From a bacterium (GTDB taxonomy: Bacteria; Patescibacteriota; Minisyncoccia; Phycocordibacterales; Zambryskibacteraceae), in NCBI GenBank assembly GCA_030649135.1, contig JAUSGI010000008.1:64001-128000 (forward strand): DNA of 64,000 nt, given 5' to 3'. Position 1 is the first letter of the stretch, and each line of letters starts with the position of its first letter. Below the pieces are notes generated by a model, which did no database searches, had not been told where the DNA came from, and saw only the letters and a list, made by a program, of their open reading frames with translations. This document shows positions 4,783 through 44,002 of this stretch, one piece after another. The position numbers and the translations under genes were made by a program.

Positions 4783-6534
4783 TTACGGTCGTGCCGGCGG
4801 AGGGGCTTCCCTATCCGGCTGGATATCATAGTAGTTGATGAGAAACTTGGCGGTATTAACAAAGGTGTCTGTTAAGGTTTCCGAGGCGTATTGAACATTC
4901 TTGGGATAATAAGTATAGAGAAACACTAGGAATTCCGGGTCATAGGATGGGAAATAGCCGAAGAATGAGTGAAGGTAACGGTCATCATAATATCCTCCTA
5001 CCTCTGGTCTTGCGATTTGGGCGGTGCCTGTTTTGGCGGCAATATTGTAGTTCTCAAGTCGAACTTGACCATAGTGGAGAGAACGGTCCACCACTTCCGT
5101 GAGCATGCGCGATATTTCCGCCGAAGTATCGGGAGAAAGGACGCGTGCTCTCTCTTCCTCCGGGGGATAGAGAATATTTTTGGTGGGCCCAAGTTCATAT
5201 CTAATTCCCTTGACCAAGTGGGGGGTGATGAGCGTGCCACCATTGGCCAGAGCCGAGAGCGCGCGTACGGTAATGATGGGGGTGAGCGCAATACCTTGGC
5301 CGAAAGAGGCCTGCGCCAGTTCAAGGTCGCGGCCGGTTTTGAGATTGGAGACCAGGGATTTACCCTCGTTTGGCAGGTCAATGCCGGTAGTAGTTTCGAG
5401 GCCGAAGCGAAGCATGTAGTCGCTGAATTTTGCGTTACCCATACGAGAGACTACGAAGGCGGCACCGGTATTGAGAGAGTTATTAAGTACTGCCTGCATG
5501 GAAAGACCGGAGCCATGAGATTTGCCGTCATAGTTGCAGAAAGTTCTGGTATTGAGTGTCATACAGCCCGGGTCGTTATAAGTGCTTCTAGCTGTGATGG
5601 CGCCAGAGTCGATGCCAGCCGACATAGTCAGCGCTTTCAGGATTGAACCCATTTCGTACCTATCTTCTATCAATCTGTTACTAAAAATAGCCGCATAACG
5701 CTCGCTTTGTGGGGAATTTGGGTCGAAGGAGGGAGTTAATGCCATGGCGTATATTTCTCCCGTTTTGGGATTAATCACTATGCCGCCGGTAAAGTCGGAG
5801 GAATATTTCTCGGTTACTTTTTTTATCTCGCTCTCGAGATATGCTTCGACCGATGGTTCGATGGTGGTGACTATATCTCCTTCGAAACTCTCATCTTCGC
5901 TGACAGCTTTCTTTATACTGGAAAAAATCTCGGCGAAAAAATTGACGAAAACATCGTCACCGCTTCTCTTTAGTACAGACTCATAGAAACGTTCCAATCC
6001 GTAGCGCCCGGCAAGTTCGTCTCCGCTATAACCAATGAGTCCTACGGTATGGGCCGCTATGGTTTGGCCTGGATAGGTACGCCATCTTTCCTTAGCGACG
6101 GAGAGGCCGGAAATTTTAAGCGCTTGGATTTTATCCGCTTGTTCTGTCGGTAGGCGTTTCGCCAGCTCCTCGTATGGGTCATTTTTTTTACCGACTTTGG
6201 CAAAGAAGTCTTCTTTGACAACTGGCGTAATGGTGTTGACGGTTTCGTAAATATTTTCTAAGTCGGTACGCTGACTCAGCATACTCGGGTTGATATAAAG
6301 AATAAACCCGGTCTTAATACCGGCCGCCGGTACGAGCGTACCATCTTTAGCGGTGAAAAAGATTAGTCCCCGGTCAAAGTAATTTATTCCGGCAACGTAC
6401 TGATGCTCCGCTTTGGCTTCGAAATCTTCCCCCGATATTATCTGGATAAAATAAAGTTTGCTAACAAGCAGAAGAGCGCTTAACAGTACGAAAAGCGACA
6501 GGAGTCGTAATCTGTTCTGAAGCCCATGCATCAA
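4783..6534 (-). CDS. ftsI: Peptidoglycan D,D-transpeptidase, PBP2/FtsI family
   Basis: N-terminal TM helix. SxxK (SILK), SLN and KTGT motifs. Position after ftsL in the dcw cluster. Confidence 0.85.
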   Translation of the reverse strand: MMHGLQNRLRLLSLFVLLSALLLVSKLYFIQIISGEDFEAKAEHQYVAGINYFDRGLIFFTAKDGTLVPAAGIKTGFILYINPSMLSQRTDLENIYETVNTITPVVKEDFFAKVGKKNDPYEELAKRLPTEQADKIQALKISGLSVAKERWRTYPGQTIAAHTVGLIGYSGDELAGRYGLERFYESVLKRSGDDVFVNFFAEIFSSIKKAVSEDESFEGDIVTTIEPSVEAYLESEIKKVTEKYSSDFTGGIVINPKTGEIYAMALTPSFDPNSPQSERYAAIFSNRLIEDRYEMGSILKALTMSAGIDSGAITARSTYNDPGCMTLNTRTFCNYDGKSHGSGLSMQAVLNNSLNTGAAFVVSRMGNAKFSDYMLRFGLETTTGIDLPNEGKSLVSNLKTGRDLELAQASFGQGIALTPIITVRALSALANGGTLITPHLVKGIRYELGPTKNILYPPEEERARVLSPDTSAEISRMLTEVVDRSLHYGQVRLENYNIAAKTGTAQIARPEVGGYYDDRYLHSFFGYFPSYDPEFLVFLYTYYPKNVQYASETLTDTFVNTAKFLINYYDIQPDREAPPPARP

Positions 6535-12647: not shown

Positions 12648-12910
12648 AAATAGATTTTGGACGGAGGAGGTATCCCAATATATCCATGACCTAACTAGGC
12701 CATTATTTTAGAGCGTATTTAATACCATCAATCATGATTGACTTATCTATTTACATATGCTATCATTAACAGCAGATTAGATCGCAAGGCTTCCGTTCCC
12801 CGCCAGTTAAAGGGGATTACAAACCGGCATCGACTCACAAGATGAGTCATGCCAATGAAGTTCCTTCAAGAGTCTCAGTCACACAAGTGACTAGACGCGG
12901 GAGAAGTAAA

Positions 12911-13258
12911 ATGTGGTATCAGTACGGATGGGGAGAAGAGAAGGACATGCAGCGCTCAGCAGAGCGTTGGATGTGCAAGGGGTTTCAAGTTCGGGCCAAC
13001 CTCCAGCAGGGGACGGCTTGGGCCCTCGTGTCGGATTTCACCTTCCCTGGTGCGATCCCACATGAGACTTGCCCGGATTGTAGGGGAACCGGCTGGTGCT
13101 CGCACCATATCCCGGACTGCCCTGGCGAGCAGGTCTGCGACGGGAAGTGCTACACGTGCGTCGAGAGCGGGACGATCTGCCTCCAGCCCACCTGGGCGGA
13201 GGGTCGGGTCGTAACGCTCGAGGAAGCGGTGGCCTACCTGAAGCAGGGCCATCACTAA
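12911..13258 (+). CDS. Cys-rich protein with a DnaJ CR-type zinc-finger-like motif (CPDCRGTGWC...CPGEQVCDGKCYTC)
   Basis: Start chosen at the internal ATG with SD GGGAGAAG (the ORF track starts at 12842). GC-rich. Confidence 0.5.
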   Translation: MWYQYGWGEEKDMQRSAERWMCKGFQVRANLQQGTAWALVSDFTFPGAIPHETCPDCRGTGWCSHHIPDCPGEQVCDGKCYTCVESGTICLQPTWAEGRVVTLEEAVAYLKQGHH

Positions 13259-13277
13259 GATCACAACGTGTCACCAA

Positions 13278-13319
13278 GGCCCTGCGCGACTAGCAATCGC
13301 GCAGGGCCACTTCTTTTTA
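13278..13319 (+). terminator. Rho-independent terminator GGCCCTGCGCGA-ctagcaa-TCGCGCAGGGCC + ACTTCTTTTT
   Basis: 12 bp perfect GC stem followed by a T-run, directly after the island gene. Confidence 0.75.
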
Positions 13320-13436
13320 CACTCCTTCTTCTATTCTCGTTCTTACATTTATAATACGCTGTAGCGTAAATTAAGTGTATACGTTATAAAGTGTCTATAG
13401 GTAGAAGATAACGTGTGTATATATCTTCTTAAAAAC

Positions 13437-31954: not shown

Positions 31955-32398
31955 CTAGAATTGTACCATAGCGCCTATATCAATAAAGTGTCGAGCGCTA
32001 AATCCAGCCGGAAGTTCCAAGACGTATTGGACTACTTGATTGGGATAGAAAATTTGTGGAAAAGTATCCGGCGATACTTCCTTGTTTATATCAACAACAC
32101 GAAAATTATTATCAATCCAGACGATATCAATGGCAAAACGCATATCTTTCATCCAAAAGCCGTCTTGAACCGGATTACCAAATATAAAAAGCATACCCGT
32201 TCCTGCCGGAAGCGTTTTCCTACCCGACAAACCCTTGGCGCGCGTTTGCGGGGTATCAACTACCTCAACTTGTATGCTGGTATCGTTTATTTTTATAATT
32301 TTTGTCTGGCTTTCGGGAACTACTGGGCGGCTGAAGAACAGAAAAACTGACCCGAGTATAATGAGGAGTCCCAAGACAAGAAAGAAGAAATTCTTCAT
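31955..32398 (-). CDS. DUF192 domain protein
   Basis: MLFIF...FWMKDMRFAIDIVWID pattern of DUF192/COG1430. N-terminal TM. Confidence 0.6.
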   Translation of the reverse strand: MKNFFFLVLGLLIILGSVFLFFSRPVVPESQTKIIKINDTSIQVEVVDTPQTRAKGLSGRKTLPAGTGMLFIFGNPVQDGFWMKDMRFAIDIVWIDNNFRVVDINKEVSPDTFPQIFYPNQVVQYVLELPAGFSARHFIDIGAMVQF

Positions 32399-32412
32399 CT
32401 TTTTATTATAAC

Positions 32413-32437
32413 AAACCCCGCCAGAGGCGGGGTTTGT
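32413..32437. terminator. Hairpin AACCCCGCC-aga-GGCGGGGTT, intrinsic terminator candidate
   Basis: Perfect 9 bp GC-rich stem with a U-rich flank. Lies after the RRM gene. Confidence 0.55.
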
Positions 32438-32460
32438 TCACTAACTGCTTTCGCAGTTAA

Positions 32461-42053: not shown

Positions 42054-42061
42054 AAAAATTT

Positions 42062-42097
42062 ATAAAAAAATAGGACCCGCCAAGTAGGCCGGGTCCT
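42062..42097 (-). terminator. Intrinsic terminator GGACCCGGCCTACTTGGCGGGTCC + UAUUUUUUUAUA (minus sense)
   Basis: 8 bp GC stem followed by a U-run on the minus strand. Downstream of cassette gene 1. Confidence 0.65.
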
Positions 42098-42133
42098 GTG
42101 GCAGTTTGGGGAGGTCTGCCAACCTTTACTTCT

Positions 42134-42322
42134 CTACTCGGCGGGTCGGAACTTACGACGAGGCCGACTTTGTTTCAGGTCTTCGTCACACCCTACCATC
42201 TCCCTTTCTATCACATCCTGGTCAGAGAGGTCTTCATCCTCCGACCCATGCATCAGTCCAAAACCCTTAAGGAGTCGAATTTCCTTACTCGAAGGATCTA
42301 CGCCTGTCTTTCTCTTTTTCAT
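42134..42322 (-). CDS. Hypothetical small protein (62 aa), GC-rich island cassette 1
   Basis: SD AAGGAGCCCAG-ATG. TTGACAA -35-like element upstream. Confidence 0.45.
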   Translation of the reverse strand: MKKRKTGVDPSSKEIRLLKGFGLMHGSEDEDLSDQDVIEREMVGCDEDLKQSRPRRKFRPAE

Positions 42323-42446
42323 CTGGGCTCCTTATGTCCTGCTTCCCTTTCGATTATGTTCAGGGTGAAGGCTTACAGACACTAACGCTCTGTCCTTTAG
42401 AGTGGCATGAACAAGCTAGTTTGTCAATTAGTTGTAATCGTTGTAT

Positions 42447-42478
42447 AGAAAAAGGACCCTCCATGCTGGCAGGGTCCC
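42447..42478 (-). terminator. Intrinsic terminator GGGACCCUGCCAGCAUGGAGGGUCC + UUUUUCUAU (minus sense), preceded by a second hairpin at 42486-42505
   Basis: Hairpin followed by a U-run. Downstream of cassette gene 2. Stem-loop sequence related to the terminator at 43443-43479. Confidence 0.65.
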
Positions 42479-42555
42479 GTTGTGAGTTGAGGCCGTGTCC
42501 TCAACTCGTTTGTACTTAGGCGTGACATCGGCACGCATTGGGATCTGAAACTCTG

Positions 42556-42786
42556 CTAGTCCCCGATCGCCCCACTTCGTGAGAACGGGCGAGAGACGCC
42601 CGGTAACACCCGGGACGGATCCATCCCGAGGCGCTGCCTCAGCCACGCGACCCACTCCGGATAGCTCGGAGTGAGAAGCACGACGACCTCGTCGTAGGTC
42701 GGCGTGTCCCCAAGCACGTCGCACACGGCTGGCAAAAGAAGCCGGCGTGTTTCCTTGTCGAGTCTCCGACCCGATGCGTCATTCAT
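42556..42786 (-). CDS. Hypothetical small protein (76 aa), cassette 2
   Basis: SD GAGGAGAAGG before the ATG. Structured GC-rich leader. Confidence 0.45.
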   Translation of the reverse strand: MNDASGRRLDKETRRLLLPAVCDVLGDTPTYDEVVVLLTPSYPEWVAWLRQRLGMDPSRVLPGVSRPFSRSGAIGD

Positions 42787-42920
42787 TGCCTTCTCCTCAT
42801 CGCGCTTTGCGCGACTTTAAACATTTAGCAGTGCGTCCTCTTGCGAGGCCTATACGCACTGCGGTTCAGCCCCCTCTGTGCGGGGAATCGATACTTGATT
42901 ATATTTTCTTTCTCAAAGAA

Positions 42921-42977
42921 CTAACTGTTTCGCCCTTTCGGACTCATCAGCGCAGATACACATCTGCGAACAGCGGG
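42921..42977 (-). ncRNA. Candidate hammerhead ribozyme (type III topology, minimal)
   Basis: Minus strand 5'-CCCGCUGUU|CGCAGAU-GUGU-AUCUGCG-CUGAUGA-GUCC-GAAA-GGGC-GAAAC-AGUUAG-3'. Conserved CUGAUGA and GAAA cores. Helix I is a 7 bp hairpin. Helix II is GUCC/GGGC with a GAAA loop. Helix III is a 5 bp pairing of CUGU(U)/ACAG. Cleavage triplet GUU. Confidence 0.45.
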
Positions 42978-43019
42978 AAGTTTTGCTGAGATACTTCCCG
43001 AAACTCTGGGTTTGCACGG

Positions 43020-43340
43020 TTACCCCTTCTTCTTCTTGCTACCGGCACCCATGCCAGCGGCCATCCGGCGCTGCTCCTCCGCGCGCTCGCTCCGGTGGGC
43101 GAGGTAGCGCTTGTGCGCCGCCTCACGGATGGAGGCCGAGAACTCGGTCTCCTTCCGACGCCGCTCGGACAGCATGCGCCTGGCGCACGCCAGGCGTGGC
43201 CGCCAGAAATCGGAGGTCGCGAGTTGCTTGTCGAGCTCGACCGCGGCGATATCCGCCGCAACGGTCGAAGTGGCGACCTGCACCGGCAGGGTGCAGGCCA
43301 GAAACTCTATCACTCGGCCAATGGAGCGTGTCGCATTCAT
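43020..43340 (-). CDS. Hypothetical protein (106 aa, helical, basic C-terminal tail), cassette 3
   Basis: SD AGGAG. Promoter TTGACAA-17-TATCAT upstream. Confidence 0.5.
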   Translation of the reverse strand: MNATRSIGRVIEFLACTLPVQVATSTVAADIAAVELDKQLATSDFWRPRLACARRMLSERRRKETEFSASIREAAHKRYLAHRSERAEEQRRMAAGMGAGSKKKKG

Positions 43341-43402
43341 GGCGTTCTCCTTATCGTGCCTCCCCTTCGTCTATACTTAGGGTGAGGACTTTCTAGCTAC
43401 AA

Positions 43403-43430
43403 TGATAGCATAATACAACTTATTTGTCAA
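43403..43430 (-). promoter_or_regulatory. Sigma70-like promoter TTGACAA-N17-TATCAT for cassette gene 3
   Basis: Consensus -35 with 17 bp spacing. About 60 nt upstream of the ATG at 43340. Confidence 0.55.
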
Positions 43431-43442
43431 TGGCTTTAAATA

Positions 43443-43479
43443 GTTAAAAGTAAAAGGGCCCTCCGTGTAGGCAGGGCCC
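43443..43479 (-). terminator. Intrinsic terminator GGGCCCUGCCUACACGGAGGGCCC + UUUUACUUUUAAC (minus sense)
   Basis: Downstream of cassette gene 4. Homologous to the 42447-42478 terminator. Confidence 0.65.
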
Positions 43480-43498
43480 AGTCGAAACGCCACCTAGT

Positions 43499-43894
43499 CT
43501 AGTAACTGGTGGGGAAAGCAGATGTCAGCGCCTCCCCCTGGTCGCTTGCCGGGTTGGGGTTGAACCAAACCCGAGAGATGGACCCATGGCCGATGTGATA
43601 CACGCCGGCCAGAGTACATGAGCCATCCCGCTGTGCGGGGTGATGTACGAACACCCCGAAACGCAGACGGGCCAGCGCGGCCGCGATGCAGAACGGCACA
43701 TCCGCGACGGCATAGACGAAGCCATCGCCATGCTCGCGGACGTAGTCCGCGAGCCCATCCGTGGTGACGAACACCGTGGGGTCCTTCACGATCTCCACGT
43801 AAACACCGTGGAGAGTTCGCATCGCCCGCCGCTGTGTGGGCGACATGTCGTAACGCGATAACCAATAAATCCTCCCGATGTAAATTCTGTTCAT
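43499..43894 (-). CDS. Hypothetical protein (131 aa from MNRIYIGRIYW...), cassette 4
   Basis: The ORF track starts at 43969, but that ATG lies inside the promoter. The ATG at 43894 has SD GGGAGG...GGGGGAACC. Contains DGSCTLAGVYHIGHG (possible Cys/His catalytic pair). Confidence 0.5.
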   Translation of the reverse strand: MNRIYIGRIYWLSRYDMSPTQRRAMRTLHGVYVEIVKDPTVFVTTDGLADYVREHGDGFVYAVADVPFCIAAALARLRFGVFVHHPAQRDGSCTLAGVYHIGHGSISRVWFNPNPASDQGEALTSAFPTSY

Positions 43895-43959
43895 GGTTCC
43901 CCCACTCTGCCTCCCATTTCTCGGAGGGCTATAGGTAATACAACCTTGGTCTGCTCTCA

Positions 43960-43988
43960 CTAATAGCACAGCACAATTCTCTTGTCAA
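43960..43988 (-). promoter_or_regulatory. Sigma70-like promoter TTGACAA-N17-TATTAG for cassette gene 4
   Basis: Consensus -35 with 17 bp spacing. Lies at the island boundary with the AT-rich DUF2231 gene region. Confidence 0.5.
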
Positions 43989-44002
43989 CAGCGTCCATAA
44001 AT

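Follow-up and report, generated by a model that had tools for sequence, protein, structure and literature searches.

A foreign GC-rich island with a predicted hammerhead-split transcription unit in a Zambryskibacteria-like chromosome

The window analyzed here was the 64,000-nt stretch at positions 64,001 to 128,000 of contig JAUSGI010000008.1 (GCA_030649135.1). Between its genes for an MFS transporter and a DUF2231 protein lies an island of four small minus-strand genes, named in the order of that strand D (131 aa), C (106 aa), B (76 aa), and A (62 aa). This segment is a compositional island of foreign DNA, acquired and made of known kinds of part, and it is more structured than was seen in the first-pass annotation, which described four independently expressed cassettes. 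It probably represents three units resembling phage morons, the middle one split by a self-cleaving hammerhead ribozyme, with ancestry in a phage or other mobile element. The hammerhead, located between genes C and B, was missed by the first-pass annotation.

Positions 42980-42918 carry every defining sequence and structure feature of a type III hammerhead and are predicted to be catalytic. The core contained C3 U4 G5 A6 N7 G8 A9, G12 A13 A14, the pair A15.1-U16.1 (A42928 with U42970), and U42969 as H17; the conserved GAAA was comprised of G12 A13 A14 and A15.1, the first base of the 3' strand of stem III. The core-adjacent pairs C1.1-G2.1, G10.1-C11.1, and A15.1-U16.1, whose integrity was the criterion for accepting or rejecting hammerheads in Perreault et al. 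(2011; PMC3088659), were all intact, with stems I and II closed and stem III open (Table 1). The centroid fold of the isolated 63 nt was exactly the canonical three-way junction. Rfam family RF00008 matched at 37.5 bits; the E-value was 6e-6 in the local search and 1.8e-4 when the whole window was searched with all 4227 families. No other Rfam family was found in the island at E<=10 beyond noise; matches in the rest of the window were tRNAs and one weak STnc370-like match. A simple hammerhead descriptor gave no second match on either strand of ~1.1 Mb of related sequence.

A hammerhead of this kind was found 20 nt upstream of P0034, a homolog of gene D in L093, a 769-kb contig of 36% GC with gene content like that of the candidate phyla radiation (CPR). 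A second copy lies downstream of P0034. Searching with a pattern of stem I and core revealed further copies in two IMG/VR viral contigs, one of which (L098) is demonstrably phage, encoding a Sak-like annealing protein and exonuclease VIII. In every copy examined (window, L093, L098c, and L099) a GC hairpin immediately preceded stem III. An alignment of seven sequences had 99% of its cells paired and compensatory changes in 12 of 16 pairs; the sequence of stem III was wholly different between the window, L093, and the phages, and paired in all. A covariance model of these seven sequences scored the window copy at 78.1 bits, the next best hit in the window at 10.7 bits, and had no match in 80 Zambryskibacteria-like loci. 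These loci, the relatives used throughout, were fetched via RNase J, which in the window is up to 85% identical to that of named Zambryskibacteria and Parcubacteria metagenome-assembled genomes.

Members of the hammerhead subfamily were carried by at least 120 IMG/VR viral stretches according to a looser pattern, and the covariance model found 139 copies in 84 sources, often two to six per contig. Among 114 distinct sequences 97.5% of cells were paired, a value somewhat inflated by fitting this alignment to the covariance model; covariation was 0.883 against 0.243 for shuffles, and slid controls were 30-44% paired. The subfamily is marked by short loops of 4 nt and an invariant UGUGU in loop 1. 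Scores against Rfam Hammerhead_3 were 16.7 bits for the L093 copy (4922-4984) and 37.5 bits for the window copy (42918-42980), with a gathering score of 48.5. The window ribozyme thus belongs, as a typical and high-scoring case, to a phage-borne subfamily lying below the Rfam threshold.

The surroundings of the L093 copies were also structured. Positions 4186-6190 of L093 (JGI Ga0272441_10000001) formed an island of raised GC (0.47-0.50, the locus as a whole having 0.36) right after a tRNA gene, beside which stands a 14-nt repeat of the tRNA T-arm. Within it, a 1,199-nt unit contained the gene D homolog, fused to a Sigma70_r4 domain, and a 66-aa Cys-rich gene. Direct repeats of 282 nt, 96% identical and each strongly structured (z = -4.75), bound this unit, and each ends in a hairpin and hammerhead. 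Plant and animal retrozymes are units bounded by type III hammerheads. The L093 unit has a like geometry, which in retrozymes and viroid-like units yields excisable, potentially circular RNAs; it could release a unit-length RNA. Unlike retrozymes, the window has one hammerhead and no flanking long repeat, and there was no sign of RNA circles or reverse transcriptase.

Windowed GC content and GC at third codon positions (GC3) agreed that the segment is a GC-rich island between the MFS and DUF2231 genes, as claimed in the first-pass annotation; GC was far from uniform across the region. Windows of 500 nt over 42501-44000 had a GC of 0.56-0.59 against a 64-kb mean of 0.463, and the highest 300-nt GC of all 64 kb (0.68, at ~43000-43350) was inside the island. 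The 150-nt GC profile formed a comb and no block: bodies of open reading frames (ORFs) had 0.60-0.69, while the promoter, leader, and terminator spacers had a host-like 0.43-0.49. Genes D, C, and B had 60-67% GC (host 46%) with GC3 values of 0.74, 0.83, and 0.75, respectively. The composition of gene A was host-like (GC 0.50, GC3 0.51). The nearest neighbors of the island were RNase J (1.1 kb away), MFS, DUF2231, and CTP synthase; GC3 was 0.58 in RNase J and ~0.48 in the other three. Each of the four minus-strand ORFs was preceded by a Shine-Dalgarno (SD) site, in agreement with the earlier description, and for A and B the SD spacing was correct and the GC1/GC2/GC3 patterns were coding-like.

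The promoters of D, C, and A could be aligned from -35 to ~+10, including a TGC right before the -10. Three -35 elements, each 17 nt from a -10, had been reported earlier. All three TTGACA hexamers are present, but the -10 of gene A (CACTCT) is poor and only the promoter of gene C passes a generic consensus scan, which found 2 promoters in total where 2.2 were expected from shuffles. The shared pattern TTGACW-N14-TGCYAY-NN-T occurred four times in the 64 kb against 0.47 expected, and each copy heads a GC-rich small gene; the fourth heads a cassette at 12.7-13.3 kb. Gene B had no -35/-10 pair of the shared type upstream, and the hammerhead stands between it and gene C, contrary to the claim that each cassette has its own promoter. 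The leader hairpins of genes C and A differ by one compensatory pair. A stretch in the structured leader of gene B, GAUUCCCCGCAYAGAG, was common to L028, a related locus described below. The hairpins in the 5' untranslated regions (UTRs) of D, C, and A were also considered as decayed hammerheads, the A leader resembling by eye the ribozyme-to-SD stretch of L093. This was rejected: the subfamily covariance model, with filters off, gave no match there at E<=10.

Genes D, B, and A were followed by homologous terminators, each a bulged hairpin of the form GGRCCCNGCC-N5-GGNGGGYCC with a T-run. GC-stem terminators after three genes, two of them homologous, had been noted earlier, and the homology now extends to all three. 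The motif was found three times in the 64 kb against 0.01 expected, always within the island. All copies keep a bulged (extrahelical) G, and the stem changes, as read from the sequences, are compensatory. At 43479-43444, 42477-42441, and 42096-42060 a GC-rich hairpin follows the stop codon and carries a T-run on the transcribed strand, as in intrinsic terminators. A generic terminator scan flagged only that of gene A because the hairpins of D and B carry the bulged G. No terminator was found after gene C.

A hidden Markov model of the 3' module found just six copies in 1.2 Mb of related DNA. The L028 copy was 86% identical to that of gene B over 59 nt and 96% identical to that of gene D over 28 nt. 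Apart from the population of L028 itself, a metagenome terminator scan turned up the module behind other small ORFs in L088 and L089, both beside ftsH, and in L028 and L089 it starts at the stop codon. No viral copy of the terminator-plus-promoter module or of the exact stem II 24-mer was found. The same expression modules are thus re-used around unrelated ORFs, which is one of the novelties that remain after comparison with known systems; others are that two CPR genomes have the D family linked with this subfamily of hammerhead and that L093 has a unit lying between 282-nt hammerhead repeats. Close genomes also differed from one another next to ftsH (L088 4520-5000 and L089 6995-7240): these two loci carry either a 140-aa GC-rich ORF or an amidase gene and a ~36-aa membrane-peptide ORF, with a window-type terminator module after both.

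With no promoter of the shared type before gene B, no terminator behind gene C, and the hammerhead between the two, three transcription units are predicted rather than four independently expressed cassettes, the middle one being a ribozyme-processed bicistron. The account that follows, including transcription, cleavage in vivo, and the effect on mRNA stability, is a prediction from sequence. Each unit would have a sigma-70-type promoter (TTGACA, 17 nt, TGC-extended -10), a short hairpin leader, a strong ribosome-binding site, a small ORF of foreign composition, and a bulged GC-hairpin terminator. Unit 1 would give the 131-aa protein and unit 3 the 62-aa protein, while unit 2 would contain in order the 106-aa gene, a hairpin, the type III hammerhead, a structured leader, the 76-aa gene, and a terminator. 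During or after transcription the hammerhead would cleave itself between U42969 and C42968. The C mRNA would be left with the hairpin 42999-42975 followed by GCUGUU and a 2',3'-cyclic phosphate, a substitute for a terminator, and the freed B mRNA would carry a 5'-OH and begin with the ribozyme in its folded form.

From one strong promoter the C and B cistrons would in this way gain separate stabilities, and their uncoupling is firmly predicted. Ends with a 5'-OH can be protective, or destabilizing as for the glmS ribozyme and RNase J1. Because such ends do both, and this organism encodes RNase J, the effect on the B mRNA could go either way. Bacterial and phage hammerheads were reported to flank single genes, and such polycistronic RNAs cleave in vitro (Perreault et al., 2011; PMC3088659). 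Uncoupled cistrons would match the role proposed for clustered phage hammerheads in that work (PMC3088659).

None of the 80 related loci encoded a relative of A, B, C, or D; the island genes are therefore not conserved core genes of these genomes. The MFS and DUF2231 genes were convergent and overlapping or <=252 nt apart in six relatives (L014, L020, L026, L031, L032, and L034), compared with 1,950 nt in the window. Among the closest relatives, RNase J was repeatedly followed by MFS and then, if these were detected, by DUF2231, CTP synthase, or both; in several of these relatives another gene stood in for DUF2231. In L028, whose DUF2231 protein is 75% identical, a 1.05-kb GC-rich two-gene island occupied the same junction. 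Its genes (92 and 102 aa) had no family matches and were unrelated to the window proteins, and its promoter/leader shared stretches with those of A and B. In all, three further assemblies (L028, L090, and L091) had an island analogous to that of the window at this site. The earlier description of an acquired array is upheld by these comparisons, on which the island is judged to be laterally acquired; the chromosome that holds it is that of an ultra-small, Zambryskibacteria-like member of the Parcubacteria (CPR). A further locus, L001, was 100% identical to the window contig across both island junctions.

Hammerheads of this type punctuate the early operons of phages, and the ancestry of the island, or of unit 2 at the least, is therefore most likely a phage or mobile element. 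Searches for target-site duplications or inverted repeats at the island ends found just short, chance-level repeats. Gene C had no relatives in IMG/VR, and neither C nor D had any in GenBank phages. Eight cassette proteins and two L093 ORFs had no relatives in the 120 hammerhead-bearing viral loci.

The four genes had been described as lacking recognizable domains, and no Pfam, PHROG, NCBIfam, or PADLOC match was found. The start of gene D at ATG 43894 was confirmed by its SD site and by 28 homologs, whose N-termini align at residues 5-8. Altogether, 59 representative relatives of gene D were found at E<=1e-3, mostly of 110-140 aa; matches to giant proteins (cadherin/RTX repeat proteins) were rejected as spurious. 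Four loci with gene D homologs had CPR-like housekeeping-gene contexts, at varying positions. AlphaFold with the family alignment gave a confident flavodoxin-like alpha/beta fold (predicted local distance difference test, pLDDT, of 91), for which a structural search returned generic matches only, none informative. The D family is a small alpha/beta (flavodoxin-like), uncharacterized family mainly in CPR-type genomes. Its near-invariant residues are W11, H29, G30, and Y61. A Cys/His catalytic pair suggested by the first-pass annotation did not hold up: in most of the 28 homologs Phe replaces the Cys of DGSC, and GHG is not conserved. In L087 (2592-6372) a 292-aa ORF without family match has its stop overlapped by a gene D homolog (44% identical), and ahead of that ORF is another of 761 aa, with no more than a faint DHH-like match. 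The three genes may form a conserved operon, which could hint at the function of D.

Six homologs of gene C were found, at 50-71% identity; one carries the annotation Candidatus Sungbacteria, and CPR-like contexts are among the others. The family has an invariant FWRPRL.CA.RML motif and a G.G.KKK tail, and its predicted structure is a helical bundle with one long helix. Third-position differences were ~2x those at first or second positions, with many synonymous, indicating purifying selection. Homologs were always GC-rich (66-71%, GC3 0.88-0.98), even in surroundings of 52% GC, and had their own strong promoter and a GGGCCC-type terminator wherever found. Downstream of the homologs in L002 (6313-6470) and L004 (1017-1153) there was a conserved SD with a 7-codon mini-ORF (MLPLVMA / MLATGMA), followed by a conserved ..UUGGCCC..CGGGGAAG..CGCCAAGA. 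This may be a leader peptide or small RNA, and it is absent from the window. In L003 (6446-10677) the gene C homolog lies in a ~62% GC region and is followed by a tRNA gene and a ~45% GC block, one protein of which has LexA_DNA_bind, Peptidase_S24, and N6_N4_Mtase Pfam matches; the block looks like an element integrated at the tRNA.

Gene B is an orphan that matched only itself among 5.8 billion proteins, and gene A had no homolog in the fetched loci and libraries that were searched. The effector, immunity, or toxin-like roles once proposed for the island found no backing in family, defense-system (PADLOC), or informative structural matches. No component matched a known toxin, antitoxin, or defense family: Pfam, NCBIfam, and PADLOC searches at E<=1 gave two insignificant matches only.

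Besides retrozymes, three known kinds of system were compared with the island. Bacterial and phage type III hammerheads (RF00008; PMC3088659) have the same full core (CUGAUGA ... GAAA, A15.1-U16.1, H17 = U) and the same place between two small genes on one transcript, as is predicted here. The close relatives of the window ribozyme lie in phage early operons with several copies per contig, whereas the window ribozyme is a single copy in a CPR chromosome, in a unit otherwise furnished with ordinary promoters and terminators; it also scores below the Rfam gathering cut-off and has a GC hairpin directly before it.

The phage moron, as described by Hendrix and colleagues, is a promoter/gene/terminator unit of deviant composition between genes that are adjacent in relatives. 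Units D and A likewise have their own promoter and terminator around a single gene, and the island likewise lies, with deviant composition, between genes that abut in relatives. Unlike morons, however, it lies in a bacterial chromosome amid housekeeping genes and not in a prophage, and it consists of several tandem units with homologous modules around unrelated ORFs, one of them bicistronic with a ribozyme. Its units work like morons and are not morons in the strict sense.

Integron cassette arrays also consist of tandem co-oriented small ORFs, each with a related imperfect hairpin behind it (as at genes D, B, and A), and also differ in content at the same site in related genomes. In contrast to integrons, the island had no integrase or attI (no island ORF exceeds 131 aa and the flanks are housekeeping genes, the rest of the window being unscreened), no attC core sites, cassettes that carry promoters, and T-runs after the hairpins. 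The integrase, the core sites, and the lack of promoters in integron cassettes are the points on which the island does not qualify as an integron.

Several observations weigh against an acquired, ribozyme-split island of phage or mobile ancestry. No integrase, transposase, att repeat, or phage structural gene was found in or beside the island, and no island-protein homolog in the phage collections. Since the window and L001 may share reads, independent assembly support comes from L028, L090, and L091 only. Translation of A and B is argued from SD sites, ORFs, and codon-position GC, because neither had homologs in the searches run, and gene B might to some degree be transcribed by itself, from the TATAAT box that follows the ribozyme (42903-42898). 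The ribozyme's 37.5 bits are below the RF00008 gathering score of 48.5; this reflects the model and not the RNA, because the model under-scores the whole subfamily, as in the 16.7 bits of the L093 copy. Because the cleavage triplet is GUU (GUC being the commonest) and loops 1 and 2 have just 4 nt, fast cleavage at physiological Mg2+ is not guaranteed.

Among other explanations, a decayed prophage or integrated element with its early-region genes left behind, rather than a set of separately inserted moron-like units, is possible though rather doubtful. It would account for a hammerhead subfamily that is overwhelmingly phage-borne and often present in two to six copies per contig, for the tRNA gene and 14-nt tRNA-fragment repeat (a typical integration scar) ahead of the L093 island, and for the placement of every island gene on one strand. 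The window island does not lie at a tRNA gene, however, and has neither an integrase nor att repeats at its ends nor a phage gene inside or beside it; its own promoters and terminators differ from the promoter-poor, ribozyme-punctuated operons of L098 and L099, and L028, where other genes share this site and 3' module, fits piecemeal exchange better than the decay of one element. Four independently transcribed cassettes for small toxin, immunity, or effector proteins, one with a Cys/His dyad, are an unlikely alternative. The modular promoter/gene/terminator anatomy, the foreign composition, the small accessory genes at a variable site, and the YafQ/RelB toxin-antitoxin pair adjoining the gene D homolog of L095 all speak for it. 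Against this stand the missing shared promoter of B, the missing terminator of C, the hammerhead between them, the lack of any Pfam, PHROG, NCBIfam, or PADLOC match and of an informative structural neighbor, the unconserved Cys and GHG, and, for effectors, sequences that by eye show no signal peptides or secretion genes.

It is quite unlikely, but was considered, that the promoter/leader and double-hairpin modules are handles of a lineage-specific Parcubacteria cassette exchange, with hammerhead-bounded units of the L093 kind as its excisable, possibly circular RNA/DNA mobile form and the window island as a domesticated array with one ribozyme left. An integron-like system, with bulged hairpins serving as single-strand recombination sites besides or instead of terminators and ORFs captured and shuffled site-specifically, is very unlikely. 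A 3' hairpin module with an extrahelical G and compensatory changes does follow at least six unrelated ORFs at four genomic sites, beginning at the stop codon in L028 and L089, and the cassettes are co-oriented in an array; yet no recombinase ORF was found in the island or immediate flanks (the other ~60 kb of the window being unscreened), no RYYYAAC/GTTRRRY cores surround the hairpins, a T-run follows every hairpin on the coding strand as in intrinsic terminators, and the cassettes, unlike those of integrons, carry promoters. Least probable of all is an artefact, either a chimeric assembly, in which foreign reads of high GC were joined into a CPR contig, or A and B as non-coding spacer or RNA. 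The sharp compositional contrast, the lack of homologs for A and B, and the long chance ORFs that GC-rich DNA makes (several antisense ORFs are present) would fit it, but the intra-island spacers are host-like in GC and run on into the foreign ORFs, both junctions read identically in a second assembly, L028, L090, and L091 have an analogous island at the same site, C and D homologs are under purifying selection, and A and B have well-spaced SD sites with coding-like GC1/GC2/GC3.

Table 1. Features of the island in window coordinates.
Feature	Position	Strand	Description
Whole island	42054..44002	-	fills the spacer between convergent MFS (stop 42053) and DUF2231 (stop 44003) genes
Gene D promoter	43960..43988	-	TTGACA (43988-43983), 17 nt, TGC-TATTAG (-10 at 43965-43960)
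Gene D 5' UTR hairpin	43910..43928	-	CCCUCC-GAGAAAU-GGGAGG, then SD GGGGGA
Gene D	43499..43894	-	131 aa, start ATG 43894
Gene D 3' module	43444..43510	-	terminator GGGCCCUGCC-UACAC-GGAGGGCCC (43479-43456), T-run
C-B unit promoter	43402..43430	-	TTGACA, 17 nt, TGC-TATCAT; 11/12 consensus matches
Gene C 5' UTR hairpin	43359..43387	-	CCUC[A]CCCU ... AGGGGAGG, then SD AAGGAG
Gene C	43020..43340	-	106 aa, helical, basic C-terminal tail
Hairpin 5' of ribozyme	42975..42999	-	GGGAAGU-N11-ACUUCCC (fold); predicted protective 3' end of cleaved C mRNA
Type III hammerhead ribozyme	42918..42980	-	RF00008 match, fold, own covariance model, family covariation
Stem III	42974-42970 / 42928-42924	-	GCUGU / ACAGU, 5 bp, open
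Predicted cleavage site	between U42969 and C42968	-	GUU triplet, cut before C
Stem I	42968-42962 / 42957-42951	-	CGCAGAU-GUGU-AUCUGCG, 7 bp, loop GUGU
Core	CUGAUGA 42950-42944; GAA 42931-42929	-	sequence
Stem II	42943-42940 / 42935-42932	-	GUCC-GAAA-GGGC, 4 bp, loop GAAA
Gene B structured leader	42787..42917	-	three hairpins; TATAAT 42903-42898 without good -35; SD GAGGAG
Gene B	42556..42786	-	76 aa, orphan
Gene B 3' module	42441..42517	-	hairpin GAGUUGAGG-ACACGG-CCUCAACUC; terminator GGACCCUGCC-AGCAU-GGAGGGUCC (42477-42454); T-run
Gene A promoter	42399..42427	-	TTGACA, 17 nt, TGC-CACTCT; -10 weak
Gene A 5' UTR hairpin	42342..42370	-	CUUC[A]CCCU ... AGGGAAG, then SD AAGGAG
Gene A	42134..42322	-	62 aa, highly charged
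Gene A 3' module	42060..42133	-	terminator GGACCCGGCC-UACUU-GGCGGGUCC (42096-42073), T7 run

Read as an acquired island with a ribozyme-split middle unit, an orphan GC-rich segment becomes a dissectable object in an uncultured CPR bacterium, with a predicted self-cleaving site placed to the single nucleotide and three predicted transcripts. Annotation at the gathering threshold misses a large phage-borne hammerhead subfamily, whose reach into Patescibacteria chromosomes may be under-counted. Two uncharacterized families were defined, a 131-aa alpha/beta and a 106-aa helical family, largely in CPR-type genomes. The D family recurs beside the same ribozyme, and both families are candidates for functions tied to mobile elements in a poorly known accessory biology. 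That one set of expression modules recurs around unrelated ORFs at several convergent-gene junctions is a hint of the way in which streamlined genomes acquire and express genes of foreign origin.

Two observations were made elsewhere in the window. At 32374-32442 on the plus strand there was a sub-threshold match to STnc370, an enterobacterial small RNA family (43.3 bits against 54, E 0.009), which is probably due to chance in this phylum. At 12730-13320 on the plus strand, a fifth GC-rich cassette is convergent with pheS. Its promoter is TTGACT-N17-TATCAT, the stretch ATGCTATCATT is identical to the promoter of gene C, and the leader hairpin is CCCCGCCAGUUAAAGGGG. The ORF (from 12842 or ATG 12911 to 13258) is Cys-rich with a CPDCRGTGWC motif and weak DnaJ zinc-finger-like similarity only. 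The cassette ends in a terminator composed of the GC hairpin GGCCCUGCGCGA...UCGCGCAGGGCC and a T-run.

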